A program made the translations under genes and the position numbers. From assembly GCA_000091205.1 (NCBI GenBank), contig AP006497.2: DNA of 64,000 nucleotides; one strand, written 5' to 3'. Every line of letters begins with the position of its first letter. Positions within the stretch are counted from its first letter, which is position 1. Origin of the DNA: Cyanidioschyzon merolae. Lineage: Eukaryota. Below the pieces are notes generated by a model that did no database searches, was not told where the DNA came from, and saw only the letters and a program-made list of their open reading frames with translations. Below, piece by piece: positions 1 through 54,340 of the stretch.

Positions 1-7
1 GGAAAGT

Positions 8-922: not shown

Positions 923-1587
923 CGCATCGACAGCTGCAGTGGGGATGCAGGATACGCGCGACGGCGAGCTAGTTCGTTCACGAACGTTTCGTGATCGGAG
1001 CACGAGTAGCGCGCTCGCTGGAAACAAGGTTGAAGAGCGCACGAGTTGTTTCGGGGGATACACGAACAAGCGTTCCCGAGTCGATTCTGGATCGAGGCAC
1101 AGCTGCTTCGGGAAAGCAACGGATCAGTGAGCGCGATGTCAATGTCAATGACGACAACAAGAACAACAACGACGAGGTCCGGGCGTCTTGTTGTTCATAT
1201 GCGGCTGCAGGGTATCTTTAGTCGTATTGAATCATAGAACAGTATGATCGTGTATCCGTGTTCGGGGTAAATCTTACGCTGTGAATATAAACGGCGCGAA
1301 AGTGTTACTGGATCGTTGAACGACACTCTACAGGTGCGTTGCTCTAGGCGAGCCTCCGATGTCCTTTGCTGCTGACCACGAAGTTTTTTCCCATCGCACG
1401 TCATCAGCGTTCCAATACAATACCCACACACACACACAGACAGAGAACTCAATGGAACCTCGAAAGTTCGCTCAGTACAAGGCCGCTAGACGCTGCAGAA
1501 GCACGAGACATCTCCGGATGTTGATCGAGGCGTTCAACTGTGTGTCTACAGAGAAGGAAACGTCAGCGCATGTGGTTGTTCGCGGGA

Positions 1588-1636
1588 ACACACACACACA
1601 CACACACACACAGACAGACACAGACAGACACACACG
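1588..1636. repeat. (CA)n/(GACA)n compound microsatellite; a shorter (CA)n lies at about 1426-1441
   Basis: acacacacacacacacacacagacagacacagacagacacacac seen directly. Confidence 0.9.
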
Positions 1637-4600
1637 CCACTGCAAACCTGTCAGGTTCGATTGCCTCGTCATCTGTGGTCCGGTCTGCCTAAAGTACACC
1701 ATTTCGTGGATCGCTCTCCGTTTTATGCTGTGCTTTTGTACCGGTTTCAGGGTGTAACCGGGCTTTTGATGCGTATCTTTCGTCGTGGACGCCTCCATGG
1801 GAATGGTACAGGGTGCGCTTCCTGCACTCGTTGGATGCTCTCGTCTGCGACACGCGATTACAGCCTTTGAGCGCTGCAGGATGCCCAGTGGTGCAGAATG
1901 GAACAAAACCACGCGACTCGATGGTCATTTGCTTTTCCAATTCATTGAAAAAGTTGGTGCATACATGCTCTCTGCCTCTGTACAACAGAGACCGTTCGCA
2001 ATTCTAGATCGATCCCGTGGAAACCGTCCAAGTATCGCCACATGCCCTTTATGGACGCGCGTATCCTCTCTAAACCGTAAAATTTCCTATACCAGTCAGT
2101 AGGTTTTTTCTGGAAGAGTGAAGTGAACGTACAATGCGAACAGAAGAGGGCGTACATCGTGACGCGCTCGAGAGTGCTCCGCATAGGGTTCGCATTTCAA
2201 GGTTGGTTTTGAGTTTTTTTGGTACCGCAGCTGGCGATATTCCAGGTGTCGACTCGATGCGGCGACCTGTAAAGTTAAGTTGGGAATCAAGTGTTCCATT
2301 CCCTGGACTTTTGCTCAGGTCGCACGGCGCATCCTGCCCCGCGCGCCAGCTGGGTTGTCGTGCGTAGCTTTCATCGACAAGTTCTGGATGAATGTGGATT
2401 GTTGGTTGTCCTGCGTCCGGACTCCTACGTACCGTTGCTTATCGACGTGCATCGAGAGAGTAGAGGCGACCGCTACTCGAATAAGAAGCCATACAATTGC
2501 TAATGGAGTACGGTCTTTCACTTTTCAGAGGAATCTCCCCGGTAATCGGTTATAGGAAGGAGGGGTTTAGAAGGGTTTCCGGCTGATCTTTCCACCCTGG
2601 CACTCTTCTCATTACTGTTCTTGCTTGTACTCTGTTCGGAAGGATGCTTCTCTTCATTGTCGGGCGGTTTGCGCGTTATATCCTTGGCTCGTCGGGGCGT
2701 CATCCATGAGGTCGCTGTACCCTGTATGCATTTTTCCACGCGATTCACATGTGTGGAGTTATCTGTCGGCCAGAGGCTGGTCTCGTCCATCCATGAATCT
2801 ACGAATCCTCGAGTACCTTTTCGTAGTTTTCTCTGTCGAAAGCACGCTCCAGGACCGGAGCGCATATATGCGCTCCGTGCTGCACTCAAACTGAAGAGCG
2901 ATAGTGCAGAACGGGGGCTCGTGAAGGTAGAGACCGACTTGTCGGAGAACAGAGCCACGGATGCGAACGCCGCATCGAGTGATTGAAGGTCGTATAAAAG
3001 GTGTTTGAGAAGAGATAGTTCGCCTTCGACTTAGTGAAACAGGGACAGAAAGCGGGTACGAAGTGCAGCTCAACGCTAGTCGCAGGCGCGTACTCCCTGA
3101 CCGCTGTTGCGTAATGTAAATCGACGTTGTCAAGAATCGTTACGAAAGATTTCCGGAAGCACAAGTCAGAGGGTGTTTCGGCGAAGGATTCGTTACTGAA
3201 CGCTCCTGAAGGTTAGGCGATTTGTAGTGTTCAAAGAACTAGATCGCTGCTGGGGCTCACGTTGTCGTCAAGCCAGGTTGTCTCGTCTTGATGGGCAGCA
3301 GTCCAGCGCTTCTTGAGTGCGCTTACACAAGTCGACTAATACTGCCGAGTAAATTCTGCTCGAATGAGACGGATACTTTTGACCCTTGTACGAAGAGCTC
3401 GAATTTCTCCTTGAAATTGATAGAATCTTGATCAGCGTGCGACGTTGTACCACGGAAACATGCGTGTTTCTTAGTCCTTCCGATTGTCTTCCTTGCGTAT
3501 GGAATCTCAAGTACGGAAACGTCGTATCTCGTGGCAGCTGCGGTAGTATTTTTCCGAACACGTATGGATTGGAACGGGTTCCCCGGGAGATGATTGTATA
3601 GATGAATTCTTGAAAGTTCTGAGTTCGGTGCATGATTCACAGAATCGGGACTGGATCAAGTGTGCTTCACACGCCTGCAGACAGCAGACGCCTGGTTTGC
3701 TCGTATTTTTGCGACCACGCGCTAGTTCACAAGAGTCTCATCTTCGCTTGACTGCGTGTGAGAAAACGGATAAAAACAGAAAACGCGTGCCGATGACCAT
3801 ATTCTAGAATTCAATGCGCTGCGAATGACCTGGGCATGTCGTGTGCAAGTCAGCCGATAGCGTTCTAAGTGCAGCATCGGCTGAGTGGACCGTATCACTT
3901 GGGTCAGCACAGAATGGGACACCGAACTGCTCGCGCTGTGTGTGCCTTGCGATTTTCGTCGCAACTTGGGCTTAGATATCTAGCTTCGACGTTCGGCATT
4001 GTAGCGGTATGAGGTTACGGGTTGATGGGAAGTTTCATCGCGCTCAGCAGTTCTTCAGGGGTGAATTTTCCGACTGTTCGACGCCTCTAGATCTTGTATA
4101 CAAGCCTCGACTCTGCTGTTTTCCTTAAGCGTACCATGTTCAAATCACGCATTCCTCAAGTTTTCGATCGTTCTGTTCCAAGGGAACTCGTGGGTGCAGC
4201 TGCTCGTGCGGCTGGACTCGCGAAGAGAGAAACTCGATGCTGCACCTAGGAAACTCCTTCAGATGTTCATGCCAAACGCCCAGTAATTGCCCTAAAAATG
4301 ATCGGTACCGTTCGAAAGACAAACCCACCACGCTTTACGTTCATCGACGAAAGAGCGTTCCATAGATGCGTGACATATGTAATGGGATATGCCTCCAGAG
4401 ACTCTATTTTCATCTGTTTATATGTCGTATTGTCTTGGACTCGAAGCTCGGTCACCGCGACATCGCGTGCAATGGAGCATCCGTTACCTCTTTGCACCAG
4501 GAGATCGAAGGTTATAGTCGGATGAAAAGTTTTCTCGACATCATCTCCTGCCTGAATGATCTCGTCGATACTTGCTTCATCATGGATCACATCGCATTCC

Positions 4601-10989: not shown

Positions 10990-11160
10990 CGATCTCCCGT
11001 CGGGCGTGCGGCGCATTCGAAGCGACCAAACAGAAGTTTCGGGAAATACCGGATTTTTTTCATTGACAAAACGTTTACTTGGGCCAGCGTACTCCGATTA
11101 TGCGCTTTTTTCTTTTCTTTCTTTTTTTGTGCTTTTTTTTTTCTGTGCGCGTTGAGGGAA
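10990..11160 (+). repeat. Partial copy (T-rich core) of dispersed repeat D (see 43575-44200 and 53590-54340)
   Basis: about 85% identity over roughly 130 nt to 53915-54025 (ccgattcttttcatggacaaaacgtttccatcggccagcgttctccgattacgcgcatttttcttttctt...). Confidence 0.7.
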
Positions 11161-26106: not shown

Positions 26107-26504
26107 GAAAACGGCGCGTTACCTGGCGTTCGGGCTAAGAGGTTCACGCGATCTGTCCACGGATGAATCAGGTTCAGAGCCTCAGCTTTGCTACACCGCT
26201 GAGAACCTGCCAATGGATCTCACCCTTTCTGCAAGAAAGCGCCTCGCAGAGCGGCGTCTAACCTCTTCCAAACAACACCCCGGGCTAACTGCGACGCTGC
26301 CCAGAGCACGAGTGCACAGCAGCGCGGCTTCGACGTCTGCGTTGTGCCGCTGCCGCCGAACTGGCAGCCGCGCCGACGTCCATCCACAGGCGCGATCGCG
26401 TAGGCGGACACGAGCGCCGTGCAGCATGCGTCTATCGGCTGTCAACTCAAGTGTGTTTCATCCGCGGGTGCGTTGCAACGAATGCTTTTTCGCAGGGTAT
26501 AACA

Positions 26505-27893
26505 GGGGATGGAATTCACGATACAATGTACCGTATCGATCGTAGATCAGTTGGATGTCGGATATGGATTCTTTACTGAACAGGGCAAAGAGGACTGCAT
26601 TCCGCCTTCGGGTCTCTCATAGGGTCGTACTCAAATGGCTGAGGAATATTGAAAGAAACGTGCAGATGTACTCCGTACCAAAAACTGGTATTCTCTAATA
26701 CTGCTTGCGGTCTATGGTAGAAAACGACCAGTTGATCGCCTTTTGCGGAAGGTAAAAGCGATAATAATAGACACCAGCGGCGTCTCTGTTTCTCAACAGG
26801 TGGTTCATGTGGACGTGAAATCTCTGGGATCCAATCGCAGAAAAAGTACGAGTTCACGCACAGCCATCTTCCACGGAAATCGCAACTACGGAATTCCTGG
26901 AACGTCAAGATCGGTATGAAGTAGACGAACGTCAATTTGTTTCTGCAGAAGATGTGAGTTCCTTCTGAGGAAACGATCGGAACGTCTATCGGTACGCGCG
27001 GAGCAGGGCACCAGTTTTGTGTACGATTGAATTCGAAGAGAACGGCGACATCATCTGCTCTAGGCGCAGTGGATTCATTTGGCAGCCTCAGCGTCGCTCC
27101 TCGAGAAGGCGCTTACCAAAGCACCCACTTGGTTGAACCATTGAAGATCTTCCCGAATGTCTGGCGAAGGCCTTCCATTGGACAACATACCCTTTCACCA
27201 TTCCACATGCGTTCGAGCTTTTCTTCGATTCTATCGGGGCAGAGCTGCTTTTCATTCCTCCATACCCTCAGAGATTCATCCCCATGAAACAAGTGTTTGC
27301 CATCGTGAAGCGTAATGATCCCTCCACTGCACGAATCCATGAATCGTTCTGCTCACGGTGACTCACAGGGACATATTTCGCCGTCCTTCCGCAAATCTAT
27401 CTCGCTCCTGCAAGGTCCTCAGCTAGGGACATAAAGAAGTGCTTTCATTTTGAAGAAAAAATGTTCAAGGCATGAGCTGAGTTGTAACCTTCAGCAGGTC
27501 GAGCTCGAAACAAGGCAGCCGAGCGCTTCTGCGATAGAAAAGTACGGAAAGCTGATAGACCACCAAATGGTAATGAGGGCACGGCCTCGAGGACTCCTTG
27601 CGCTGGTAAGTTCCACTAGCGGTAGAGCATGCAAGGAGGTCGCGAACCGAGACTGCAACGTCGCCACCAAGATCAGATGATATGCGGTGCCAAAGACGAG
27701 ACTCCCGGAGCTGACGCGATCCAACTTTCTGGGGCAGCCTCTCAGGCTCGAAGGGTGTTCGGATAAAAAATGAAACCTTTAGCAGGAAGCCGGTCAAAAA
27801 ATGCTGAAAGGCCTCTGCCGATGGATATCCATTTCCCCTACAGGGCCGTCGGACATTTTGTTTCACTGACGACGTTTGTATACGCGCAGGTTT
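26505..27893 (+). mobile_element. Non-autonomous (internally deleted) derivative of the Fanzor/TnpB-family element: roughly 0.85-kb left-end region joined to a degenerate C-terminal/RE segment; no intact ORF
   Basis: 26505-27390 aligns (same orientation) with 47352-48240 of the full copy. 27450-27680 translates to RARPRGLLALVSSTSGRACKEVANRDCNVATKIR, a decayed version of KVRGLLAFVSTTNDGKKRMEFVNRDFNAAINIRR. The 3' 200 nt align with the right end of copies at 50400-50613, ending ...gtttgtatacgcgcaggtt. Confidence 0.75.
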
Positions 27894-33686: not shown

Positions 33687-34480
33687 TTATTAGAACCCCA
33701 CCAGAAGAAACGCATTTTCCCACGGAAGCGGCAGCGAACGCCGTTCAACAGTCGAAAGTCGCCAGCAGTGTACAGTAGTTGCGAATGACCTGCCCTAGAC
33801 GAGACACGTCCGAATGACGTGCAGACGCCTCCCAGTATTTTTGGACCGGCCACCGACTACTGGTTCCATTTTTTTCTCATATAATCTAACCTTGAGATGT
33901 TGCCCTGCAAAAATTTCTCTTGTCATCTCTGGAGGCCTCTTGTCCATCACCGCACGTCTCCTGATATTGATAGTGGCATTAAAGTCTCGATTCACAAACT
34001 CCATGCGTTTCCTGCCATTGGTAGTTGTATTCATTAGTGCGAGTAGTCCGCGAATTTTCGCCTTAGTTTCCATTTGCACTTCCGCCAGCGCTTTGTACTT
34101 TTTTACACCCTCAAGGCTCGGCTGACACTGCTCCATCTTGACCTTCTGGAGCGTACACCACAGCTCGTGGCGTATGTTGGATGTTCGGAACTCATATATC
34201 GGTATTGTGACGAAACATCGTGCGCATTCCTTGTACGCTCATTGCGAGTTGCTGTAAACCGGAAACGAAATTCTCCTCGACAAGCCATAAAAGTGGTGTT
34301 GTGGCTTTCCGCCAGACACGGTGGCTGTTTTTGCCGTGTCCATGGTCCCGCAGGCGTGTCCCGGAGTGCGCTGACTCCATAAAAGCCGCGAGTTCGCGCT
34401 GCTGCCCTGGCATCGGGGTGCTGGCGGCTCCACAGCACAGATACCTCATGATGTGCGGGCGAAGCATGCTGCTTCAGCAC
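33687..34480 (-). mobile_element. 5'-truncated copy of the Fanzor/TnpB-family element (RuvC-II, Zn-finger region, RuvC-III and right end retained)
   Basis: Minus-strand translation IYEFRTSNIRHELWCTLQKV...KIRGLLALMNTTTNGRKRMEFVNRDFNATINIRRRAVMDKRPPEMTRE...YEKKMEPVVGGRSKNTGRRLHV; right end aligns with other copies and stops at about 33687, 40 nt upstream of the DnaJ ATG (33646). Confidence 0.8.
33795..34480 (-). pseudogene. C-terminal fragment of the TnpB/Fanzor-like nuclease gene (broken frames upstream of RuvC-II)
   Basis: ORFs 33795..34136 and 34192..34467 are in different frames but collinear with the C-terminal third of copies at 40.5-42.9 kb and 48.3-50.5 kb. Confidence 0.75.
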
Positions 34481-34779: not shown

Positions 34780-35672
34780 GCTAGGCGAGAGCGATCCGTT
34801 TGCGAATCATTTCGGAATGCGAATTCGATGTTCATGAGTGTCTTCCCGTAGTAATGCCTCTTTACTTCAGGTTCGAGGCGCGCCTGTTCGAGTTGGTTTA
34901 GCGCTTGCGTTCGAGCTTTTTGTCGATTCCATCGGGAAGCAGACCTGCTTTTTATTCTTCCTTGCACTCCGTGATTCAAGCCCATCACAGACGTGTTTTC
35001 TATCGTGAAACGTAATGATCGCTGCACTGGGCGAATCGCTGAAGCGTTCTGCACAATCACGTCGGAGCATATATCGTCGTTTTTCAGCAAGTCTTTCTCC
35101 CTCCGGGCAGGTCGTCGACTACGGGCATTCAGAAGTACGTGCATTTGTCGAAATAGAAAATCCATGCGAAAAGTATGGACATGAAAGTTAGGGATCCCGG
35201 AGGGTCGTCATTGCCAGGCGCCGGAAAAATGGATATATTGCTCTCCTCGTCGACCAGTGAGCGAAGAAGAGCAAGCGAAGATGATGACGAAGAAGAAGAG
35301 AATAGATAGGCGAGAAAAGATGGATGCCCGACGAGACGCTGGCGATTCTTTATTAGCACTGACGGCGCGAGTTCTAGCAATCCTGGCAATCGTGCGTTCA
35401 ACCGTCGACGATGCTCGCATGTAGCTCGTGAACCGAGACTTCACTGTCACCATCAATATCAGACGATGCGCGGTGCAGGAAACGATACCCGAGGAGCTAT
35501 GACGATCCAACTTCGTAGGGCATGCGCTCAGGCTCGACGCGTGCCTGGATACACTGAAGCTGCCAGCAGGTGGCTGGTCAGAAAAAATGGGAGGCTTCTG
35601 CACGCGGGCACCAGTTTAACCTCCATGGGCGCGAAATGCCTATCGTTTTACTGACTACAGACGTTCATTCTC
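34780..35672 (+). mobile_element. 5'-truncated non-autonomous derivative of the same family (3' part of left-end region + degenerate RuvC-III/RE segment), head-to-head with the fragment at 33687-34480
   Basis: 34860-35400 aligns with 48040-48520 (gcgttcgagctttttgtcgattccatcggg..., gtgttttctatcgtgaaacgtaatgatcgc..., gacgagacgctggcga). 35420-35500 translates to LVNRDFTVTINIRRCAVQETIPEEL; right end aligns with other copies to about 35672. Confidence 0.7.
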
Positions 35673-36541: not shown

Positions 36542-38224
36542 CTACGGGGAAAAGCTCTGGAAGAAGGAAATCGAAAAACCCTCGTCAAACCGGTCGCCAT
36601 CGCCACGTCGCAGAATACGTGCCCAGTTGACTTCAAACCGACCGAGGCTCGTACAGCAGGCGAGTCCAAGACCCGCTGACATGCGCCAACTCTGGCGCCA
36701 CGCGACAGCGTCCGACCATTCCCGACAGTCACCTATTGCACAGAACGTGTGGAACTGTAAGCCGAGGGAGCGTGCCACTGCACTGGTAACGATCGGGACG
36801 CCTAGATGTAAACCTAGTTTGTAGTAGACATCTCCACCGATGCTGTCTCCATCGGCGCTGGGCCCTAGGCCCCGATTCCGGAAGCCTCGGAATGCATTCG
36901 CACTGCCGCCGACGAAAAATCGATCGCAGATCCTCGTCTGACGCAACGCATGCCGGGGGCCGGCACGGTGCTCGCTTTTCCGGTCTTTCATCGCAGCGAG
37001 CGCTTGGTGGAAGGGAATGATCATTCCCCCCTGGAAGCCAACTGAGAACACGATAGGAGGCATCAGACGCTCGGGTGGTGACGGGGCAGCGTCACCAGCT
37101 GCAAGTGAATCGTCCACATTGCGCACGAGTTCGCTGCCGTCGGCTCCCGTCAGTGGCACATTCCACTGCCACGAGAGCTCGCTTCGAATAAATCTCGTTG
37201 CGGGATCGCCACCGAGTCCCGCTAGTTCACAGTTCCACTGAGCATTCGTACCCTGACGAGGCGCCAGCGGATCGTCGCGACCATCCCGGGTCCAGGTGTA
37301 TTTGAATGAGCTCTTCACTGAGTGCCCAGCTTGTTCACGAACCCTGATGCTTGCGTGCGGTGCGACTTGCCCCAGCTCGCGCCAGCTGCACTCATAAGCG
37401 AAACGTCCGAACCGCGTCTGGAGGCCGGCTTCAAAGCTGCGCTGAAACTCACTATACGAACTTGTGTCCATGCGATTCAGCAGGGCGCTCTCGGCACTTG
37501 CCGTCGCCAATGCGTCCAGTAACCCCCAGGGATGTGGTTTTCGCCAACCGCAAACAAGATGATTCGTGGCTGTTTGTTTTGCAAATAGGTAGCGGTTCGG
37601 GTGCACCAGTGCAGCGAGGCTACTCAAACTCGAGAGCGCGAATCCGGACCCGCCGACGCCCGCACCAAGTTGGCAATGCAAAGCATCTCCCGTCCCAGTA
37701 AAGTTTATGAAGCCTCCATCAAGCTCGAGAGCGGTCTCGCCGGTGCGCGTATCGGTAGAGGTCCCAATACGGAGTGAAAAAGGTGGCGCCTCACGCACAG
37801 TAACGAGTGCATCGCAGGGCACAGACTCTGCAGTTGGCTCACCGTTCGCAGGGACCGCCGATTCATCGATGAGAATGTCCACTGCACGGAAACACTCGGT
37901 CAGACGGAGTCGCTCGGTTGCGAGTGACGCTCGTTCGAGGAGCTCCTCGAGTGTCAACGAGCGGCGGCTAGACTCAGGAGGCAACGAGTCTCGGTTCTGC
38001 TCCTCCGACAAAGATGCATCTAGGAGGCTCTGGACAAAGTCGATGCGAGTTCGTTCGACGCCGCGAATAATGACCCGCCGCAGACGAACTGTTTCACGCA
38101 AGATGTCGCGAACTGGTGCTTCAAGATTTTGCGCTGAGGCAGTAGCTTGCTCAGATCCGGAAACCATCCGCGGGTGCGTACCAGTGCAGCGCTCCTTGAA
38201 GAAAGCTGCCGATTTCTCCACCAC
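36542..38224 (-). CDS. Sam50/Omp85-family outer-membrane beta-barrel assembly protein (mitochondrial SAM50-like)
   Basis: ASIRVREQAGHSVKSSFKYTW...QWNCELAGLGGDPATRFIRSEL and DRFFVGGSANAFRGFRNRGLGP...GGDVYYKLGLHLGVPI are collinear with SAM50 (ASFAVRKESGHSLKSS..., DRFYLGGPTSIRGF...GGEAYWAGGLHL); N-terminal POTRA-like segment. Confidence 0.85.
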   Translation of the reverse strand: MVEKSAAFFKERCTGTHPRMVSGSEQATASAQNLEAPVRDILRETVRLRRVIIRGVERTRIDFVQSLLDASLSEEQNRDSLPPESSRRSLTLEELLERASLATERLRLTECFRAVDILIDESAVPANGEPTAESVPCDALVTVREAPPFSLRIGTSTDTRTGETALELDGGFINFTGTGDALHCQLGAGVGGSGFALSSLSSLAALVHPNRYLFAKQTATNHLVCGWRKPHPWGLLDALATASAESALLNRMDTSSYSEFQRSFEAGLQTRFGRFAYECSWRELGQVAPHASIRVREQAGHSVKSSFKYTWTRDGRDDPLAPRQGTNAQWNCELAGLGGDPATRFIRSELSWQWNVPLTGADGSELVRNVDDSLAAGDAAPSPPERLMPPIVFSVGFQGGMIIPFHQALAAMKDRKSEHRAGPRHALRQTRICDRFFVGGSANAFRGFRNRGLGPSADGDSIGGDVYYKLGLHLGVPIVTSAVARSLGLQFHTFCAIGDCREWSDAVAWRQSWRMSAGLGLACCTSLGRFEVNWARILRRGDGDRFDEGFSISFFQSFSP

Positions 38225-38439: not shown

Positions 38440-38620
38440 GGATCGACTGCGTTGAATGGGACTGCATCTGGCAGTGACGTCGGAGGTGTTATGGTGTCAT
38501 CTGGGTGTGCAACGATGCTCAAATGCGTTGCATGGGACTGCATCTGGCAATAACGATCGACCGCGTTGACAGGGACTGCATTTCGCACTAAAGTCGGAGG
38601 TGTCATCGTATCATCTGGGC
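38440..38620. repeat. Minisatellite: about 57-bp unit x about 3 (core gggactgcatctggca)
   Basis: gcgttgaatgggactgcatctggcagtgacgtcggaggtgttatggtgtcatctggg recurs with substitutions three times; 200-400 bp upstream of the Sam50 start. Confidence 0.8.
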
Positions 38621-40574: not shown

Positions 40575-43090
40575 ACCCCTGGAAACAAACGTCTTTCAAA
40601 AGAAAAACGATGCAGCCTGCGGTATACAGAAATGGCGCGCAGCGCGCCCGAGTCAGAACGTCTCCAGCTGACGTGCAGTCGCCTCCCCGTCTTTTTGGAC
40701 CGGCAACCTACTACTGATTCCAACTTTTTTTCATATAATTCCACTTTGGGAGGTTTTCCAACAACGTTCTCTCTTGTCAACTCTGGAGGTCTTTTCTCGA
40801 GCACCGCACATCTCCTTATATTGATGGCGGCGTTAAAGTCTCGGTTCGCAAACTCCATACGTTTCTTGCCATCATTGGTTGTACTTACTGATGCAAGCAA
40901 TCCTCGAACTTTCGCTCTCCTTTCCATTTGCTCTTCCGTCAGCGCTCCGTACTTTTTCGTATCCTCAGGGCTCCGCTAGCACTTTTCCATCTCCACCCTC
41001 TGAAGTGTACACCCCAGTTCATGGTGTGTATACGATGTTCGAAACTCATCCATTGGTATCGTAACGAAACGCCTCGCGCACTCCTTGTACGTTCTTGTCG
41101 TTGGAGCTGGAGTAGTCCCTTTTTGGGTCTTCCAGCGCCCTGCTCCGTACCCTGCTACGAGCCTCTGACTTTTATCCTCCTTCAGGGCACTCAACTGATT
41201 GAAAAAACTCTCGAACGCACGCTGCTTACCACACTATAGATTCATTCGCAAACGAGCCCACCGGGGCTTGGTATACTCCTCCCACAATGCATTCCAATGA
41301 GCAACGCGAACTTCCATGAATTTCCGAAAAGCTTTAAAGTCCGCTCCTCGGCTCGTCACCTCGCTCACAGCTTCCAGGTGCTCGTTCATTCCTGCATTCC
41401 ATTTCTCGATTTTCTTCCTCGTATTCATGATTCCCGATTCTCGATGGTATCTCGCTCTCGAGAACCTCAAAAGACGCATATCTTTCTGATGCAAGGTACC
41501 GTCAGTACCATCTTCCCCACGCTTCGGTGCTGCGATGGTTATGATACTTGTGTTTCCAGCGTCCGCGCCAACGACAAAGTCGTTCTCGTGCATCTTCTGT
41601 GTCGCAGGACCCGCCTTCTTCTCATCTTCATGGTTCTCCGAGGGCGGAACGGGCCGATCCACACTCAACCGCCGATAGTGTATGCACCTGGCTACTCCAT
41701 CGGTTTCGATCATCCCAGTGAATACCTTTTGTCTGCTTACTTTCAGACGTTTGAAATCGAAGATACTCTTCCGGGGCATCTCCCGGTTTTCGTCGGTGAA
41801 CTCCTCCCTGCGAACATCGAACTCCGGACAGATCTCCTTCAAGATGCCATGAAGGATTCTCGAGTCCATAGTCACAAAATGTGACTTGATATTGCAAATT
41901 GGAACCATGTTGAAGCGCTTCCCCATTAGGGCCGACTTCCGCCTCTCCCACTCTTTATTTGTCTCCTCACTCAGCTTCCTCTCTGCCTGGCGTTCGAGTT
42001 CTCGGTCCAGAACCACAGAATAGCGCAGGACGAGGCGATAGTATCTTTCCTTAACTTTTTTTCAACTCTGATATCTTTTCTGTTGGATTCGCCAGCTCCA
42101 AGACTGCACGGTGCTCTTGTATTACGGCACGGATGACGGAGTCCTCATTCATGCTCTGGTTTGACGCCTTCTTGTCGACGAATTCGATCTCATCTTCATG
42201 CTTACGATCGTTCGTGGTGCCATTGAGGTCCGCCTATACTCCATTGCGAGAGATGCGCGGGTAGCGTGCAAACACGGCACGTATCATGAAACGTTCGAGG
42301 TTCATTGTCAAATGGTTCTTCAGATTCGTGAGGTATTTCATGGCCCCATAGTCCTAAATATCCCGGTCACCCCTATACCGAGTACCCTCGAAGCGGAATT
42401 CCGGGAAGGTTTCGTGGAGGACATGCACTGCTCATTTTCCCTCCGCGCTTTCGCTGTACCAAGCATCAGGTGACGAATAAACGTCGTGTCGAAGAATTCT
42501 TCCGGAATCTCGACTGTTTCCATGTGCGTCACGTCGCGATACATCTCCTTCACCAAATGCATCAGTCCTATAGAGTCCATACGAACCCTCGTGAAGTACG
42601 AATCAACATAATTTCTGATGGCCTCTCGCAGATTTTGCTTGTGCGGATCCTGAATATGGCCTAGATGGCATGATTTCTTTACAATCTTGAAGTAGGGTCG
42701 TCTTTCGAGTTGCATTTGGCGCCGGGCCCCCCCTTGTTTTGCGTCATCGTCGTGTCTTGTTTCTCTTCGGTCGGTATTCTTTTTCGCTTTTTCCGCTAGC
42801 CGGCGACGCTGCCCCTCCAGGATCCTCCACTTCCTTTTCCATAACTTTCCTCTTTTATTTTTTTGTAACGCACTTTGAACGCTTCTGCTATAAACCGCGA
42901 AAAAAACACGAGAATACACTTGTTTGAGGTTTGAGACACAAATGAACGGAAAAACTGTACTTTGCTACAACTTTAACGCAAGTACAACTTTTATATTAGA
43001 GCAGCACGCTATTGATCAGGATCGCGTTTCCCTTCAGCTGCGGGATGCGCGTCGTGACTCGAAAACTAACAGATCTCCCTGGTGCGCAAA
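40575..43090 (-). mobile_element. Near full-length copy of the Fanzor/TnpB-family element (copy D), with a truncated left end
   Basis: Collinear on the minus strand with copy 47352-50613 from the N-terminal basic region (42919) to the right end (acccctggaaac at 40575-40586); about 75-80% nucleotide identity. Confidence 0.85.
40660..42919 (-). pseudogene. TnpB/Fanzor-like RuvC nuclease gene, inactivated (at least 3 frameshifts, 2 in-frame TAG stops)
   Basis: ORFs 42338..42919, 41234..42016, 40976..41194 and 40493..40927 form one collinear protein: N-terminal KRKWRILEGQRRRLAEKAKKN (basic), [17 protein letters not shown] (RuvC-I), IPMDEFRTSYTHHELGC (RuvC-II), NRDFNAAINIRRC (RuvC-III). TAG replaces Tyr at 41234-36 and Gln at 40976-78 relative to the other copy. 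Confidence 0.85.
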
Positions 43091-43574
43091 TCGATAGCGC
43101 TATGTAGAACAAAGAACAGAGACTCACGACTAGCGAGCAACGATACAGCAATTTCTCTCCCGTTCTACGATAAACGTTGAAAACGGGGAAAAGGTTCCCA
43201 TATTCTGAAGAGTCCTCCCTCTAGGCGAAAAGTCCCGCGAGCCGGACGAGTCTCCCGGACTCGTGCTTCGTGCTCCACCCAGTAGCGGGCGCTGTGGCGA
43301 GACCTGAGCAGTTCGTCCGCAACGCGGTTCATTCTGGGACTAGATGCGGGATGCTGTGTTTGGTCGTCGCCCTGATCGCAGTAGACTCCTAATATATCGG
43401 TTCGCGCTTTCGCAGGCAGTAGTTCTGTCTGTTTAGCCTACAGGCTCCCAGAATTATTCTGGACTCCAACGCTGTATCAGGTAAAGCGTTCCTCAATCCG
43501 TCGCCCTCAGTGGTATGGCAACGCTGTTCTATCTCCATGATGCATCCGTCCCAGTGGTATAGGCGCTAAGGCGG

Positions 43575-44200
43575 GTGCCCAAAGCAGGCACTCGGTCGCA
43601 CTACAGAACGCACAAAACGATCTGTACATCCGAAAGGAAGTATAAGGAACGGAGCATGGAGGTAGAGTGCATCATGATGGACACTTTTTCGATCAGCTAT
43701 ACCCATCCATCTCGCTATCTGGAATCCAAGTACAATGTAAACGTTTTGTCATTGGAGAGAAATCAGCGGCAACAGCAAATGCAGCGGATTTTGTTCCATG
43801 TGAAAACTTCTCACACAGGCGAGCGTGCCGCGACTCTGTGTGCTTGCTACCTGCGCGCGGTGAAACTTTCGTCGTTCCACGCTTTACGTCCGAGTTTCAT
43901 AACCCATACTTCTTCTCGGATGTACTGGCGTTTCAGACGTACTATCGGGCGCCGAGTGCCTGCCCGTGAACATCCGCCTCAATAGCGCTTGTAGCGCCGG
44001 TGCTGTCGTAGCACAGAAACAGAACGGCGTTGCCGTACCGCAGACGGCGTCTGCTCGAGGCATGCTTCACCTGACGTAGAACTGGGTCTCGTTGTCAGGT
44101 TGTGCTCGGACAGCCTGCGGATGCAAAACTTGCTTTCGCTGCACAACACATTGGAGAAACTTGGCTGTTACGATGAATCCTGGGAGCCGCCTCTCTCCTG
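43575..44200 (+). repeat. Dispersed repeat D (about 0.6 kb) lying 0.5 kb upstream of petC
   Basis: 43860-44200 aligns at roughly 80% with 54000-54340 (for example aatagcgcttgtagcgccggtgctgtcgtagcacag...gagaaacttggctgttacgatgaatcctggga); weaker similarity extends to 43660 / 53690. Confidence 0.75.
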
Positions 44201-46668: not shown

Positions 46669-47351
46669 GGCAAAAACGCAACTCGTGAACGTCCCCCGGC
46701 TGCTGGGTTTTCCTCTCGCAACAAGCTCGACTCGAAAGGCAGCGAGATGTCTACCGAAACATTCCAAGCGTTTTACGGATCAGTGCGCCCTCAGCAGCGC
46801 CGTGCGGAAAAGCGCTCTGAACGATTGGATGGGATCCAGATGCCTATGCTGCAGGGTATTTCCTGTGAATGCAGAGCACTCGTTTCCGGTTTCTATGTTG
46901 CCGTCGCATGCACAGGTGTAAGCGGACAGTGAATTGACCTCTTGCGCTGCACTCGTGAAATGTCGAGCACGAATTCATCCATGTCAAACTGAAATGGTAT
47001 TTGCCGCAAGCTTCCCATGAAGAGGCATTTGCTGGTCGCATTTGGACTTTGGAAGCGATGCTGAAGACAAGTTCATCGCCGCGAACTCGCGTTGGAGCGG
47101 GATGCTTTGGCATTTCGCGACTGCAAAGCAACGTTCAGTGAGTGCTGGTGAGTGCCAGCACGCACATGCCAGCACCATGCCCTGAACAGACCCAGAAAAC
47201 GAATCGACGCGAATGTTTAGCTGCTTTTTCACCAGATGTGTCATATTGGCATCTATCGGATGCGTGAACGCTACCATCAAAGAGGCCCGAGGTTTCCGTT
47301 CTTGTAGTCTTTGTACTAAATTCTGTTTCACTTCCGCTGCGATGTCTAGAA

Positions 47352-50300
47352 GGAGATCGAAATCACAATGCAATGCATAGTGTAGATCGTAGATGATTTG
47401 CATGTAGCATATACATTCATTTCTGAACAGTGCAAGGAAGACTGTATTCCTCGTTTAGGACAGTCATACCACCGTACTCAGATGGTTGGCAAACACTGTA
47501 AGAAAAATGTAGATGCACTCCGTGCCAGAGATCGATATTCATTGAGGTCGCTTGCAGTCGATCTTAGAAAACGATCCGTTGATCACCATTTTCGGAAAGC
47601 AACAGCGACGATAATAGCCGCCACAGGCGTCACCGTTTCTCAACAGCTTATTCTTATGATCCCGAAAACATTGGGATACAATCTCAAAAAAAGTCATCGT
47701 TCAAGCAAAGGCATCTTCCATCCAAATCGCAACGACAGAGTCCCTGGAACGTCACGATCGATAGGAACCACTGGATCGTCAGTTTGTTTGTTCAGTTGAT
47801 GAAAATTGCTTCAGAAGGCACGCTCGGAGCGTCAATGGGTATTCGAGGTGAAGGGCGCCCGTTGTACGTTCGATCGAGCTCGAAGAGAACGACGAAATCA
47901 TCATCTATTATAGCTTTAGAAGATTTATTTGGCGGCCTCAGTTTCACTTGTAGAAAAGACACATGCAACAGCACCAACCAATTTGTCCAAGCATTGAAGA
48001 CTTTTACCCGACGTCTGGCGACGTCCTTCTATTGGGCAACGTGGCATATCACCATATCGCTTGCGTTCGAGCTTTTTGCCGATTCTATCGGGGTAGGGGT
48101 GATTTTTGTTCGTCTGTGCGCTCCGTGGTTCAAGCGCATTGTAGGAGTGTTTTCTATCGTGAAACGTGATGATCGCTCCCCCGGGCGAAACGCTGAGCGT
48201 TCATCACTCGGTAACACATCGGGGTACATGCCATTTATCTTGCGAAAGCCACGCTCCCTCCGAGAAAGCCCTCATCTAAGGGCAAAAAACGTGCGGTCGT
48301 TTTGACGAAATAAAACTCCAAAACAAAGCTATGCACGTGCAAGTCGGGGATCCTGAAGGGCCCTTGCCGCCGGCTGGCAGAAAAAAACGAAAAATTCTGC
48401 CAATGGAATAGGAACAAAACAGAACGAAGAAGCAAAAGGGCGAGGCCCGACGTCAAAAGCTGCGCGAAAGACGACTATGCGACGAGACGCTGGCGAAAGC
48501 CTGTCTTGGTAACCATATCAAGGATTCGGACAAGCAAACATGCAACAAGTCATCCGAGACCGTGTCGAGTCGCACTCCATGAGTATTGTAAAGGATTCTT
48601 CAGGACTAATGCCTTTGACGAAGGAGATGAATCGCGGCGTGACGGGCATCAAAACAGTCGAGGTTCCGGGAGAATTTTTCAACACCATCGTTATGCATCA
48701 CCTGATGCTTGGCACAGGGGAAACGTCGAGGAGAAAGGAGCGAATGCATGCCCTCCACAAAATTACCCCGAATACCCTTTTCATCGGTAATCGATACCGG
48801 CGTGACTCGGATATTTACACGTACGGGGCGAAAAAGTACCTCACGAACCTAAAGAACCATATGAACATGAACCTCACACGTTTCATGATACGTTCCGTCT
48901 TCGCGCTGGACCCGTGCCTCTTTCGCAAAGCGATAGACGGGTTACCATCAATGGCATCTCGAACGATAGTAAGAACGAACAGGAGATCGAACTCGTCGAC
49001 AAGAAGACCTCGCACAGGAGCATGAATGAGGCTTCTGTCATCCGCGCGGCTATTCAAGAGCACCGTGCACTCTTGGGGCTCGTTGACCCAGCAGAACAGG
49101 TATCAGAGATGAAAAAGATGGAAAAAGAAAGATGTTACCCACACTTCCTGCGCTATTTCGTGTATTTGGACCAAGAACTCGAACGCAAGGCTGGGATGGA
49201 GCAGGGTGTGCGGAAAAATGCAGAGTCGGTAGAACGGAAGGCTGCGCTTGCGGGTACGCGCTTCGAAGTCGTTCGGTTATGCGAGATCAAGTCGCACTTT
49301 GTGACAATCGACTCCAGAGTCCTTTACGGAATACTGAAGGAGATAAGTTCGGGGCTCGATGTACGCAACAAGGAGTTCACCGGTGAAAATCGGGACACGT
49401 ACTGGACGCATGTCTTCGACGTCAAGCGTCTCAATACGAGCCAGAAAAGGTATTCAGAGGTGTCATCGAAACTAAATGAGTAGCCATGTGTGCACACGAT
49501 CGGCGCTTGAAGGCAGATCGTCATATCGTGCCTTCGGCTTCGCCCGTGACGAAGCATGAAGATGTGAAGCAGGCGGATCCCGCGACGCAGGAGGTTCAGG
49601 ATACTGGCTTTGGCGGCGGCGCGGACCCTGGGATGACGAATATCATAACGATCGCAGCACCGAAGCGTGCGGGAGATGGTGCTGATGGTAACCTGCGTCA
49701 GATAGAAATGCGTCTCTTGAGGTTCTCGAGACCGAGATACTACCGAGAATCCGGTTCAATGAATGCGAGGAAGAAAATCGAGACATGGAATGCAGGAGTC
49801 AAGGATCAGCTGGAAGCTATGAGCGAGGTGACGATCCGACATGCGGACTTTCAAGATCTGCCAGAGTTCATGGACACTCAAGCTGCTCATGTCGAGGAGC
49901 TGCGGAAAGAGTATCGAAAACAAAGGTGCGCTCGTCAGCGTTTGAATCTGTACAGAGAGAACCAGCGTGCATACGCCAACGATTTCAATCCGTTGAGCGC
50001 CTTGAAGGAGGACGAGAGTCAGAGGCTGGTAGAAGCGTATGGGGCAGCGCGCTAGCTGGCCCGAAAAGGGACTACGCCAGCTCCAACGACAAGAACACTC
50101 AAAGAGCGTACACGGCGTTTTGTTACGATACCAATAGGTGAGTTCCGAACATCGTATACACACCATGAAGTGAGGTGCGTACTTCAGAGGGTCGAGATGG
50201 AAACGTGCCAGCGGAGCCAAGAGGATATAAAAAAGTACAGACCGCTGACGGAGGAGCAAATGGGAAGGAGGGCAAAAGTTCGCGGACTCCTTGCATTCGT

Positions 50301-50613
50301 GAGTACAACCAATGATGGCAAGAAACGCATGGAGTTTGTGAACCGAGACTTTAACGCCGCAATCAACATCAGAAGATGTGCGCAGCTGGAGAAAAGACCT
50401 CCAGAGTTGACACGAGAGAGAATTTTGTCAGACGACCTCTCAAGGTCGAAGTATACGAGAAAAAGTTGAAACCAGTAGCAGGTGGCCGGTCGAGAAAGTC
50501 GGGAAGGCGTCTGTACGTCGGCGTATAGGCATCCGATCTGCGGCGCGCCGCTCGCCACTCCTGTACCCCTAGCGACAGCGTTTTTCTTGTGAAAGGCGTT
50601 TGTTTCCAGGGGT
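47352..50613 (+). mobile_element. Full-length copy of the Fanzor/TnpB-family element (copy E): roughly 1-kb non-coding left-end region, nuclease gene, roughly 90-nt right end
   Basis: Left-end region shared with 26505-27390 and 34860-35400; ORF segments 48331-50525; right end gtttttcttgtgaaaggcgtttgtttccaggggt conserved in all five copies, ending at about 50613. Confidence 0.85.
48331..50525 (+). pseudogene. TnpB/Fanzor-like RuvC nuclease gene, inactivated (at least 3 frameshifts, 1 in-frame TAG)
   Basis: ORFs 48540..49025, 48914..49483, 49486..50055 and 50170..50469 lie in frames 0/2/1/1. Motifs: PAGRKKRKI (NLS-like), GGGADPGMTNIITIAAP (RuvC-I), IPIGEFRTSYTHHEVRC (RuvC-II), NRDFNAAINIRRC (RuvC-III). 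TAG at 50053-55 where copy D has Trp. Confidence 0.85.
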
Positions 50614-50652
50614 GCCCAGGGGGTCGCTTTAGCCTAGCTTTTGGTCTCGAAA

Positions 50653-52743
50653 ATGCCTCAATGGGACAAGCGCGCCAGACAGCGAAGAAGCAACCAGTCT
50701 CGTTGGCGTCGGGAACCATGGGAGACGCAGGAAGTCGCTTCACCGTTAAGTTGGCTCTGCTTGCCTGCGCGTGTGCTAGCGTGCTTTGGCTCACCTCCGA
50801 GCGAAGAGCTCGCTGAGTCGGCGCAGCCGCCCGACGACATTGTGCCTTGGGAGGACTCCGAAACCGCCGACTCGTCTTCTCAAAGCAGTTTTGGTGGCTC
50901 TGATGAAGGTGCGCGCCAAGAGCTTGCGTGCCGTACGCGAGCGGAGAAAGTGGACGGCAACGGCGCTGGCACCGAGAACGACCAGGATGAGCAACTATCC
51001 GTCGAGCTGGACGCGCTTCGTCGACGTCGCTCCTTCTCGGCCACGAGCTTCCACTTGCCAGCTGTATCCCGTCCAACAGCGGCAGGTAGCATTGTCGACA
51101 TACCGTCAGAGCGTCCACAGACCGCGCAACGCAGAGAACGTCAACGTATCGTGGGCAAGTTGGCGCTCGTTGGGCTCGGTACTCAGCTTCTGCTGCTCAG
51201 CTTGAAGTTGTACAGATTTGAATCGCTCTCACCAGCGTATCTCGTTTTTTCCGTCGCGTTTTTCGTGTTCAGCGGAGGACTTGCTTTCCTGAGTCTCCAC
51301 TACTTTAAAATGGGGCGCCTGCCACCTTTTCTGGATGTGGCTGCAAAACGGCGAGAAGCGTCGCACAACCGTTCGTGTGGGACAAGCCCGGCCCGCTCCA
51401 ACACCGACTCGACGATGCGTACGCTGAGCGGAGCGGGTTCGGCGTTCAGTACTCCAACGGCGGACAGATCGCCATGCACGCCCAAGTCTCGAATTGCCTC
51501 GCGCTCTCGAGAGTACGCTCAAAGCTTCCAAGAAAAAGGCGATGCGCAGGTCGTCAGAACGTCATTTGACTCGCGATCAAACCGACGAATCTTCTCAGTG
51601 CTGGGTGTCGAGAGCTCGCAGTCATTTTGCGAGCAACAGGGGTGCAGTACAAGAATGCCGAGCAAGAGTCGACCGGCAGCGATACGAATCGACGTTACCA
51701 GCGAGCGTACCGCGGCAACATCAGCGAGCGATGACGCAGTTAGTGCGGACAACATCGCCGTGTCCGTCAGAGAGCCGTCCACGCTCTCTGATGCCGATGC
51801 TGATCATACAGAGCATGGTATCGAGAAGCGTCGCGGCACCTTCCGCGAAAAGCCCGGCCAGCGAGGCACGCCCGGTGTTCGCGCTGCTGTTGCCGAAACC
51901 CAGCGACGACATGTGCAGCGGGCGACAGAAACTCGTAGCGCCGGCGCACCGGCCTTGCCGGTACCAGACGCTTCGGACCAGATGAGAGCTGGCGCATCCT
52001 TAGAGCAACGGCGTCGATCCCGCGAGGCATCCTCTCTGTCAGACGACGGAACGCCTCCCGAAGTGCAAATTGAGTCACTGCGTATTGTAGAGAGTTGGGA
52101 GAAGATGCGTATAACAGCAAAGAAGGAAATCTTAGCGGAAGATTTTTGCGAGGGAATGCTCAGTCTATTGAGCGTCATCGATGCATTGGGTCCCGCTTTT
52201 CGAATCATCAAAATCGACATTCGAAATCATGTGAATGGGATCCACCGCAGCTGCACGAAACACAACTGCCGCACCCTGCAGCGCCTCATTGATGCAGAGT
52301 CGAATCGGGTATCACGCTGGTTGAATCCATCGGGCATTGGCGATGGTACGGAACATGTGCTCTGGATGAAACGGGCCATGCAGTTTGTGTACATGCTGTT
52401 GTACATGTTTTTGGATGGCATCGATTTAGACCGGTGTGTATACCATGCATATCGCATGACGCTGCGAGCCTGTCACCCGTACATTGTCCGGAAAGTAGCG
52501 GAGAACCTGCACCGCTTCGTCCCTACCAGAGCTGGCTTTTTGCGCAGAATCCACGCAGATGAGGACTTTGTTTTAACGCAAATGCGGCGATTCTTGAAGG
52601 CAATCGAACCGCGTCTTGATATTATCGTTGAGGTATTCAACGCAAACCAGCTGGAACCGCACTGTCGATTCTCATGCGCAGAATTGCGCCGGCTGGCACA
52701 GCACTGTGCAAAATATGATATCGACGAGGATATGACGCAGTGA
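50653..52743 (+). CDS. Membrane-anchored protein with a C-terminal glycolipid-transfer-protein (GLTP) domain
   Basis: C-terminal 200 aa: LSVIDALGPAFRIIKIDIRNHV...HVLWMKRAMQFVYMLL...AYRMTLRACHPYIVRKV parallels the GLTP fold (LWLKRGLKF...AYxxTLxxxHxWxVR). A transmembrane stretch LALVGLGTQLLLLSL...FFVFSGGLAFLSLHYF precedes it. The ORF-track start 50641 is TTG; first ATG is at about 50653. Confidence 0.55.
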   Translation: MPQWDKRARQRRSNQSRWRREPWETQEVASPLSWLCLPARVLACFGSPPSEELAESAQPPDDIVPWEDSETADSSSQSSFGGSDEGARQELACRTRAEKVDGNGAGTENDQDEQLSVELDALRRRRSFSATSFHLPAVSRPTAAGSIVDIPSERPQTAQRRERQRIVGKLALVGLGTQLLLLSLKLYRFESLSPAYLVFSVAFFVFSGGLAFLSLHYFKMGRLPPFLDVAAKRREASHNRSCGTSPARSNTDSTMRTLSGAGSAFSTPTADRSPCTPKSRIASRSREYAQSFQEKGDAQVVRTSFDSRSNRRIFSVLGVESSQSFCEQQGCSTRMPSKSRPAAIRIDVTSERTAATSASDDAVSADNIAVSVREPSTLSDADADHTEHGIEKRRGTFREKPGQRGTPGVRAAVAETQRRHVQRATETRSAGAPALPVPDASDQMRAGASLEQRRRSREASSLSDDGTPPEVQIESLRIVESWEKMRITAKKEILAEDFCEGMLSLLSVIDALGPAFRIIKIDIRNHVNGIHRSCTKHNCRTLQRLIDAESNRVSRWLNPSGIGDGTEHVLWMKRAMQFVYMLLYMFLDGIDLDRCVYHAYRMTLRACHPYIVRKVAENLHRFVPTRAGFLRRIHADEDFVLTQMRRFLKAIEPRLDIIVEVFNANQLEPHCRFSCAELRRLAQHCAKYDIDEDMTQ

Positions 52744-53589: not shown

Positions 53590-54340
53590 CTAAACTGTGA
53601 AAGCGACAGCAAATGCGCCCACGCAGAGCCAGGTGTCGATCATCGGAGAATGTCCGAGCGACTGCGAGCGTGCCTGTTTGCATCGCTGCGCGCCTCCGCG
53701 CGTAACCGCTATGTTTTTCGTGGAATACGACGTCTGCGATGAACCTGAATATCTCGAGTACGTGATTGTTGTCGGCAACGAGAAAACAGGCGACAATTCC
53801 TTTTCAGATGGTTTGATGCTTCACGCCTGCCAGCACAGTCTCTCGATTCGAACATAGGATTCGACTCAACGACTTTTGGGCTACAGTGCTCACTCGACGG
53901 TAAGCTCGCCACGACATCCGATTCTTTTCATGGACAAAACGTTTCCATCGGCCAGCGTTCTCCGATTACGCGCATTTTTCTTTTCTTACTTTTTTTGTGT
54001 TTTTTTTTCAGTGCGCGGTGAGGTATCCACCAAATCCCCTACTTCCATGTTACATTACCTGCACTTCGTCTCGGATATTCTGGTCGTTTCATACGTCCTA
54101 TCGTGTGTGCCTAGTACCTGCCGAAAGCGACAGCAATAGCGCCTACAGCGCCAGTGCGGTCGCTGCACGGAGACAGAGCGGCGTTGCCGTAACACAAAGG
54201 GCGGCGGCTCGAGGCGTGGCTCACCCGACGTAGAATCGGGTCTCGTCGTCAGTTTGTGCTCGGAGAGTCTGCGGATGCAGGCTTGTCTTCGCAGCACGAC
54301 ACGCTGGAGAAACTTGGCTGTTAGGATATATCCTGGGAAC
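53590..54340 (+). repeat. Dispersed repeat D, second copy, about 0.4 kb upstream of the kinesin gene
   Basis: Aligns with 43575-44200 and (T-rich core) with 10990-11160. Confidence 0.75.

Follow-up and report, generated by a model that had tools for sequence, protein, structure and literature searches.

Fanzor omega RNAs (ωRNAs) are transcripts of the right end, or 3′ inverted repeat, of the element and can share sequence with the C-terminal codons of the nuclease gene (PMC10432273, PMC10530073). In the solved complexes of Fanzor1 (Fz1) nucleases, the ωRNA has a conserved 7-bp stem-loop 1 (SL1), bound by the RuvC and TNB domains, followed by a variable region, which in SpuFz1 and PpFz1 consists of one stem-loop immediately ahead of the guide (PMC11423790), and reported lengths are 75 nt for PpFz1, 90 nt for SpuFz1 and 150 nt for GtFz1 (Xu et al. 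2024, PMC11423790; Saito et al. 2023, PMC10432273). Here, a 64,000-nt stretch of the Cyanidioschyzon merolae genome (the window) was analyzed, and we propose that the right end of CMe-1A, an old and abundant red-algal Fanzor1 family, encodes a candidate ωRNA scaffold, for which coordinates, structure and boundary are predicted concretely. To our knowledge, Fanzor ωRNAs have been mapped experimentally for only a handful of loci, none of them red-algal. C. merolae is a genetically tractable model alga.

CMe-1A is the sole Fanzor1 family described in C. merolae (Bao & Jurka 2013, Mob DNA 4:12; PMC3627910). It comprises about 150 copies, ~80% identical to a 3169-bp consensus that encodes a 734-amino-acid Fanzor1 protein and has no terminal inverted repeats (TIRs), and its first 635 bp constitute a separate repeat, TE-N2_CMe (PMC3627910). 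The 2013 description, which predates ωRNA biology, lists the family as unclassified, with target-site duplication and class unassigned, and describes no RNA or hairpin for it (PMC3627910). The published consensus, taken from Additional file 2 of that paper, was aligned to the window, in which blastn found five copies of one family, named A to E here. Similarity to the consensus extends over the full length of the element in copy B, and the host is C. merolae, as an open-reading frame (ORF) for PetC, the cytochrome b6/f Rieske protein, at 44702-45424 matches strain 10D exactly. By sequence, the five repeats are copies of the already catalogued CMe-1A, and the 284-nt segment that an earlier note on this DNA had flagged as a candidate ωRNA is its right end. 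To this known element and nuclease, the present analysis adds new details: a predicted ωRNA, a terminal hairpin and a correction of the right end.

The RuvC motifs VVGADxGNT, VDEFRTS and NRDFNAAINIRR can be read in A and B after conceptual translation, and they occur in all relatives. The last of these aligns with the NRD..NI motif of solved Fanzor1 chains, and the invariant columns of the five-copy alignment concentrate in the RuvC-III region around it. The ORF pieces of A and B lie in different frames, and the protein is readable only when they are joined conceptually; no intact Fanzor ORF is present in the window, A and B being interrupted and C, D and E being fragments, although intact CMe-1A-related Fanzor ORFs exist outside of it (see also PMC3627910). 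A 25-sequence profile, run against 1.8 billion cluster representatives, returned 2445 relatives. A profile built from 50 diverse full-length relatives matched the solved structures of PpFz1 from Parasitella parasitica (9cf0, E 5e-21), SpuFz1 from Spizellomyces punctatus (8gkh, E 5.5e-15) and GtFz1 from Guillardia theta (9cer, E 2.3e-10), with the RuvC-II and RuvC-III motifs lined up in these alignments. The Cas12f-like TNB domain PF07282 was matched by 23 of the 50 (best E 2.1e-8), with the C. merolae-type proteins and the relative P0110 falling below its threshold. No match was obtained in Pfam, NCBIfam or PDB with single sequences or with a six-sequence profile, and an AlphaFold2 model of P0110 from the 25-sequence alignment was too poor for a fold search (predicted local distance difference test score 42.6). 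At the level of sequence profiles, the CMe-1A nuclease belongs to Fanzor1. Along the ORF of 54 copies, diversity at third codon positions is 2-2.8 times that at first and second positions, indicating that the family diversified under protein selection.

The right boundary of the element was located by comparing copies. Copies A and B have the terminus ...GGCGTTTGTTTCCAGGGG(T) in common, which occurs twice in the window against 0.03 expected matches, and their flanks differ directly after it. When 73 distinct 3′ ends are compared, the identity of columns, 0.85-0.95 within the ORF and 0.75-0.85 within the tail, drops to 0.3-0.4 at the terminus of A. At least six independent insertions end in ...TGTTTCCAGGGGT and then enter unrelated flanks, while other subfamilies carry different terminal strings of 12-16 nt, most of which close with GGTG. 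The published consensus ends in ...GAAAGGCG, within the 3′ arm of the terminal hairpin described below, and A and B can be aligned for at least 15 nt past that point, to ...TTTGTTTCCAGGGGT (50598-50613 in A; 40575-40590 in B). This alignment places the published right end ~15 nt short of the true one, an omission that makes both the terminal hairpin and the start of the guide invisible from the consensus. At the left end, a conserved T/C-rich stretch of 7-8 nt precedes the first consensus base (CGATGAC...), the left end in the window lying near 43752-43762, and the published left end seems to start 7-8 nt too late. Past ...GGTG, pairing continues into the flank by four extra pairs in 6 of 41 cases, a count for which the control was uninformative and in which the copies are related, and TG is the commonest first flank dinucleotide (8 of 41). 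In some lineages, the true terminus may lie up to ~4 nt further out. In some subfamilies, the first four flank bases (TGCG, TGTG) could lengthen the terminal stem by pairing with the conserved UGUA, for example at L029:1417-1420, L036:6996-6999 and L050:991-994.

No inverted copy of the right terminus was found in the window at three or fewer mismatches, and no long inverted repeat was found spanning the CMe-1A element, whose left and right ends are unrelated. A search for TIRs in a member of a sister family (L002) was also negative; in this family (L001-L004), the left boundary falls in a truncated transposase gene and no TIR was found there. Directly before the T-rich left end, (N)GAT occurs in ~10 of 14 distinct copies, for example as CTGAT, TCGAT, GTGAT or TTGAT; it may be a target or a motif resembling the target-adjacent motif (TAM), or equally the first bases of the element. 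Examples are at 43763-43768 (-) in the window and at L021:3830-3842 and L036:3240-3251. No empty insertion sites were found.

A scan of metagenome contigs yielded 273 relatives, and 80 loci were retained; at two of them (L007 and L008), the sequence has 99% identity with copy B. No DNA similarity was found in the phage collection. Folds of 54 non-redundant copies have a common layout of 68-75 nt: a short hairpin of 6-7 bp just past the stop codon (family form GGGCGG-UUU-CUCGCC), a linker ACUACUGUA whose columns are nearly invariant across the family alignment, and a long terminal hairpin. The latter has 16-24 bp and is nearly perfect, with a 5′ arm starting from about (GUA)CACC and a 3′ arm that closes in ...GGUG at the terminus itself. 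Nearly all of the 54 copies end in such a hairpin despite differing arms, which are AACGUUUUUC-UUUU-GAAAGACGUU in one subfamily and GUCGUUCGA-CUU-UCGAACGGCG in another, the latter with CUA/UAG variants. At two loci (L056 and L010), the arms have been exchanged for unrelated sequences and form perfect hairpins nonetheless. In copy A, the minimum-free-energy fold of 50500-50616 has a z-score of -2.84, with none of 200 shuffled sequences being equally stable. A further hairpin, spanning the stop codon (GGAGACG-UUU-CGUCU), was considered and dropped, as its variants pair only in shifted registers.

A test of covariation on the five window copies was unworkable because only three of them keep the tail and one of these is decayed, and relatives were used instead. 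RNAalifold was weak on a plain MAFFT alignment, as discussed below, and three other tests were therefore applied. In an arm-swap test using fixed 30+30-nt halves of all 54 copies without selection, cognate hairpins averaged -20.7 kcal/mol and random flank windows -14.2 kcal/mol, while chimeras whose arms are less than 60% similar had -14.1 to -15.2 kcal/mol, equal to random flank. This loss of stability on swapping indicates that the two arms of the terminal hairpin diverged together. For strand asymmetry, the 5′ arm was aligned to the reverse complement of its 3′ arm under equal scoring of every mismatch; among the transition mismatches, read on the sense strand, 44 were of the G·U type and 11 of the A·C type (binomial p = 9e-6, with copies that are not independent), an excess that fits an RNA read in the direction of the ORF and not duplex DNA. 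The third test was a pair count based on a covariance model with 25 base pairs built from nine clean tails, which gave 76 matches, 57 of them distinct. In these, 82.9% of cells are paired versus 79.2 ± 0.5% in shuffles, and 20 of the 25 pairs have changed on both sides versus 9.9 ± 1.7, a number reached in none of 500 shuffles; slid controls are 34-54% paired. A model-fitted alignment inflates pairing, while the counts of double changes and the slid controls are less affected. In this model, the terminal hairpin shows the compensatory changes that a structured ωRNA would be expected to carry. The short hairpin is 82% paired in the 57 distinct copies and is conserved, with little covariation.

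All matches to the tail model sit just 3′ of Fanzor ORFs and on the ORF strand, with the module beginning ~16 nt past the end of the protein match and stopping where the 73 copies diverge. When run over the whole window with filters off, the model matched C at 33797-33732 (-) with 48.5 bits, B at 40651-40583 (-) with 30.4 bits (E 2e-5) and A at 50539-50612 (+) with 28.5 bits, and nothing besides these three fell below E 0.05. Fold z-scores of the 3′ regions against shuffles are -2.8 for A, -2.0 for B, 0.1 for C, -1.0 for D and -0.2 for E. The non-coding tail module is thus kept only in A (50539-50613), B (40651-40575) and C (33797-33732). The earlier note had described the 3′ end as alignable in every member, which holds for the RuvC-III coding part in all five copies and fails for the non-coding tail. 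In particular, the two ORF-less derivatives, D and E, which were said to retain the segment, align only through the coding part and gave no tail-model match at E ≤ 10 with filters off, showing that retention in every member does not hold for this module. Several of its limits also needed to be moved. The in-frame stop of copy A at 50467-50469 follows a 2-nt insertion and is a product of the resulting frameshift; with the ancestral family stop (Table 1), the non-coding tail is ~85 nt and not ~100-140 nt. Copy C, placed as ending at 33687, ends near 33732 according to the model, and the elements extend further to the left than had been drawn, B to 43752 and A being preceded by a transposase remnant. 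The reported complete divergence of the flanks past the shared terminus was borne out in A, B and the 73 related 3′ ends. A weak tail-model match outside the recognized copies, at 36639-36678 (-) with 15.8 bits and E 0.05, contains the short hairpin and CUGUAC followed by a stub of the second stem, and could be chance or a very decayed relic.

In its layout, the CMe-1A tail resembles the solved Fz1 ωRNAs: both are encoded on the sense strand at the right end or 3′ end of the gene, both have a short SL1 followed by a variable stem-loop 2 (SL2) before the guide (PMC11423790), and both measure ~70-90 nt. The proteins are related at the profile level, while the resemblance of the RNAs is one of layout, with no sequence similarity claimed. 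The two differ in that SL2 of CMe-1A has 16-24 bp, versus 4 bp resolved in PpFz1, and in that the solved Fz1 elements carry TIRs and CMe-1A carries none. The sister family (L001-L006, 44% protein identity) has a 183-nt tail that, by eye, likewise starts with a GGGC...GCCC hairpin, followed by UUACUGUA, which is similar to the CMe-1A linker. Likeness also extends to TnpB of ISDra2 and the IS200/IS605 group, where an RNA made from a TIR-less, structured right end adjoins the nuclease gene at its 3′ end, or overlaps with it there, and takes its guide from the flank. Those elements are bacterial, however, and their Y1 TnpA recognizes hairpins at both ends, whereas no such gene and no left-end hairpin was found for CMe-1A, for which the sole TAM candidate is the possible (N)GAT to the left of the element.

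Taken together, it is plausible, with a probability that we put at about 0.6, that the CMe-1A tail is a Fanzor ωRNA scaffold. The protein family, the position and boundary of the module, its conserved and co-varying pairing and its sense-strand bias are observed; transcription and processing of the ωRNA, its binding by Fanzor and the use of the flank as guide are what we infer. In the proposed mechanism, the last ~70-75 nt of the element, on the strand of the nuclease gene, would encode a scaffold made of the short hairpin, the single-stranded linker and the subfamily-variable hairpin that ends in ...GGUG at the boundary, and the scaffold may begin further upstream, within the final ~100-180 nt of the ORF. 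Through read-through past the boundary, the scaffold would gain ~15-20 nt of flank as the guide, which in copy A would be encoded by GCCCAGGGGGTCGCTTTAGC, by analogy with TnpB and Fanzor systems. The scaffold would be bound by Fanzor1 protein from an intact copy at another genomic site, and the complex would cut a TAM-adjacent sequence matching the flank, that is, the insertion site free of the element. Since all Fanzor ORFs in the window are broken, the scaffolds of A and B, the only two copies that could still supply one, would have to act in trans, the other three copies being relics; what the window itself displays is the biology of decayed copies.

Several results weigh against this proposal. 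On the plain MAFFT alignment of the 54 copies, RNAalifold returned only four invariant G-C pairs, all in the short hairpin, and the evidence for covariation comes instead from the model-fitted alignment and the arm-swap test, with copies so related that the counts are not independent events. The program misses the terminal hairpin because MAFFT sets the arm types, which differ in stem length and apical sequence, out of register. Nucleotide diversity of the tail is 0.37-0.41 versus ~0.25 at third codon positions, so the tail outpaces synonymous sites and has no constraint on primary sequence beyond the short hairpin and linker. The tail is absent from D and E, and in C it has decayed, several stem pairs being broken and the fold being no better than shuffles. 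A covarying hairpin is also present in the ORF-less TE-N2 module, showing that hairpins of this element are not necessarily linked to Fanzor and may have a part in transposition. CMe-1A also lacks TIRs. Mutation by template switching can keep hairpins paired without selection. Rfam 15 gave no match at gathering score and none below E 1 in 50250-50700, a negative that says little, as the content of Rfam for Fanzor ωRNA families was not checked. With respect to the earlier note, its observation is partly confirmed and its ωRNA interpretation partly supported: the Fanzor1 profile, the position, and the covariation and G·U bias in 54-76 relatives speak for it, while the presence of the module in ORF-less derivatives, on which it had also relied, does not stand. 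The tail is likewise not the unusually conserved sequence it was taken for; on the alignments, what is conserved in it is the pairing, together with the short hairpin and linker.

Among other explanations for the same data, the terminal hairpin might be a DNA-level cis signal for transposition, a single-strand hairpin recognized by a transposase, like the ends of IS200/IS605 or the 3′ ends of Helitrons. We consider this possible but doubtful, and it can coexist with an ωRNA, as it does in IS200/IS605. Such a signal would suit an element without TIRs (PMC3627910) whose end coincides with the 3′ arm of the hairpin, and in which, by eye, a motif ACGTTT is found in three places, namely the left end, the TE-N2 hairpin (in its loop) and the right-end hairpin (in each of its arms); that the ORF-less TE-N2 module keeps a covarying hairpin of its own points the same way. 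However, the 4:1 preference for G·U over A·C favors RNA, or one specific strand, and not duplex DNA, the left end has no matching hairpin, and the surroundings of the copies showed no gene of the Y1/HUH or RepHel type, the sole transposase relic being of the DDE_3 type, which acts on TIRs and not on hairpins. Nor are the ends Helitron-like: they read T-rich...CGATGAC and ...GGTG, with no 5′-TC and no CTRR-3′, and the 3′ arm of the hairpin is itself terminal and not located 10-12 nt before the 3′ end, for which reasons a Helitron was rejected.

The tail could also be functionless, reflecting the common descent of a recently amplified family, with pairing upheld by template switching or fold-back repair. 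Diversity above that of synonymous sites, an excess of paired cells over shuffles that is modest (82.9 versus 79.2), the loss of structure in the decayed copies C, D and E, and an apical stem that differs by block replacement (TTTC-TTTT-GAAA versus CGA-CTT-TCG), beyond point changes, are all compatible with this. It nevertheless appears improbable, as a stability of about -21 kcal/mol is held where arms are less than 50-60% similar and neutral decay should have approached -14 kcal/mol, clean in-register double substitutions occur (such as CGA/TCG to CTA/TAG), and a strand-asymmetric tolerance of G·U is unexpected from palindrome repair at the level of DNA; the short hairpin and linker, moreover, are kept even in the sister family at 44% identity. 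That the hairpins instead form an element of the 3′ untranslated region of the Fanzor mRNA, acting in 3′-end formation, stability or control of translation, is very unlikely in our estimation. Although they lie directly after the stop, on the sense strand, and have the G·U bias of an RNA, they are not followed by a T-run or anything resembling a terminator, the end of the structure coincides with the transposon boundary and not with a poly(A)-type signal, and the architecture matches that of Fz1 ωRNAs.

Returning to the ωRNA scaffold, its upstream limit may lie within the gene. For ~70 nt before the ...NFIG codons, third-position diversity is lowered to 0.16-0.17 versus ~0.25 and codon periodicity is lost (Table 1), and the last 36 codons show weak periodicity, with a ratio of 1.5. 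These values hint, weakly, at a functional RNA whose start may lie within the ORF, as in GtFz1 and ISDra2 TnpB, in which case the 284-nt span of the earlier note would be a reasonable outer limit. Several relatives that are otherwise intact (P0002, P0004 and the P0003 cluster) lack the last 36 codons of the family ORF, terminating at ...NF(I/F)G, and at one locus of the P0003 cluster (L087:10229-10262) a TAA stop comes right after NFIG; because these intact relatives stop there, the 36-codon C-terminal extension seems to be dispensable for the Fanzor protein. As a compact ~70-nt scaffold with two hairpins and a very variable guide-adjacent stem, the CMe-1A tail helps to ask which parts of Fz1 ωRNAs are constrained.

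Table 1 Features of CMe-1A copies and their surroundings in the window
Feature	Position	Strand	Remarks
Copy A	48288-50613	+	CMe-1A without the 5′ TE-N2 module; Fanzor1 ORF broken by frameshifts and stops
Copy A, match to consensus	48288-50598	+	Consensus 868-3169, 82% identity
Copy B	43752-40575	-	Full-length CMe-1A; ORF broken by stops and frameshifts
Copy B, match to consensus	43752-40590	-	Consensus 3-3169, 85% identity
Copy C	34240-33732	-	5′-truncated CMe-1A
Copy C, match to consensus	34240-33760	-	Consensus 2665-3145, 81% identity
Copy D	27471-27818	+	Internally deleted; Fanzor C-terminal coding fragment only; consensus 2736-3084, 70%
Copy E	35361-35585	+	Divergent derivative, D-like; 35361-35489 = consensus 2840-2971, 70.5%; 35417-35585 matches D
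RuvC-III motif NRDFNAAINIRR, copy A	50341-50376	+	From translation; columns invariant in all five copies
Lowered synonymous diversity	50368-50437	+	Coordinates transferred from family alignment, approximate
Ancestral family stop TAG, copy A	50526-50528	+	Consensus 734-aa ORF ends ...WRRFV*
Short hairpin, copy A (SL1-like), GGCGCG-CCG-CUCGCC	50542-50556	+	From model alignment
Linker ACUMCUGUA (consensus ACUACUGUA), part	50557-50562	+	Last bases enter the terminal stem
Long terminal hairpin, copy A (SL2-like)	50563-50615	+	3′ arm reaches the element boundary
Putative guide-encoding flank, copy A, GCCCAGGGGGTCGCTTTAGC	50614-50633	+	Start uncertain by up to ~4 nt
Tail module, copy B, both hairpins	40583-40651	-	Model match and fold z -2.0
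Decayed DDE_3 (Tc1/mariner/IS630-type) transposase remnant	47351-48313	+	Directly upstream of A, same orientation

Transposase relics accompany several of the copies. Within the remnant upstream of A, an ORF at 47784-48305 is 31% identical over 110 amino acids (E 3e-12) to the transposase of the metagenomic locus L002, which in turn matches PF13358 at 1.3e-25. Homologues of this remnant precede D (26504-27461) and E (34899-35204), and from this arrangement D and E look like internal-deletion derivatives of an element that carried both transposase and Fanzor. In the metagenomic loci L001-L004, an intact DDE_3 gene lies upstream of an intact 699-amino-acid Fanzor. This order and orientation, present as a relic at A and intact in L001-L004, also characterize Mariner/Tc1-type Fanzor1 elements such as PUl-1 and PGv-1 (PMC3627910). 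In contrast to those elements, no TIRs or TA duplications are demonstrable in the C. merolae copies, and most CMe-1A copies hold the non-coding TE-N2 module instead of a transposase.

In copy B, this 5′ module (~43130-43752, -) is TE-N2_CMe and has no ORF. Near its 3′ end, it contains the hairpin CCCCU-UUUAACGUUUAUCGUAG-AGGGG (consensus 561-588, ~43165-43200 in B), which in the window has the form CCCCU...AACGUUUAUCG...AGGGG, and compensatory variants of the stem (such as CCCACU/AGUGGG, CCCGUU/AACGGG and CCUCUU/AAGAGG) are found among 14 distinct copies. At some loci (L039, L065, L053 and L015), this module and the Fanzor part have opposite orientations. A more speculative idea, which we regard as unlikely in its entirety, is that CMe-1A kept a logic like that of IS200/IS605, with a TIR-less, structured right end and a possible (N)GAT insertion site. 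The fast-evolving terminal hairpin could then act in mobilization, as the recognition signal, as well as in the ωRNA, as the stem next to the guide; co-evolution of the two arms would provide an identity tag specific to the subfamily, and the ORF-less TE-N2_CMe would be mobilized or guided in trans. In any event, the hairpin-terminated right end provides a lead on how a Fanzor element without TIRs moves.

Additional fragments of the TE-N2 or left-end module lie at 43885-44075, inverted and adjoining copy B, and at 54038-54240, and a short repeat pair is formed by 11052-11157 and 53920-54023; this distribution suggests clustered or nested insertions. Within the Fanzor gene, a coding tandem repeat precedes RuvC-I at ~49540-49600 in A and ~41600-41650 in B and is also present in the relatives P0001, P0003 and P0012. 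Its units resemble VTKHEE(K)KEA..TQ(E/K)VQDND and differ in copy number between relatives, and the repeat appears as a spike of multiple BLAST matches. A 65-nt direct repeat pair, 83% identical, at 38441-38505 and 38555-38619 is unrelated to the Fanzor family.

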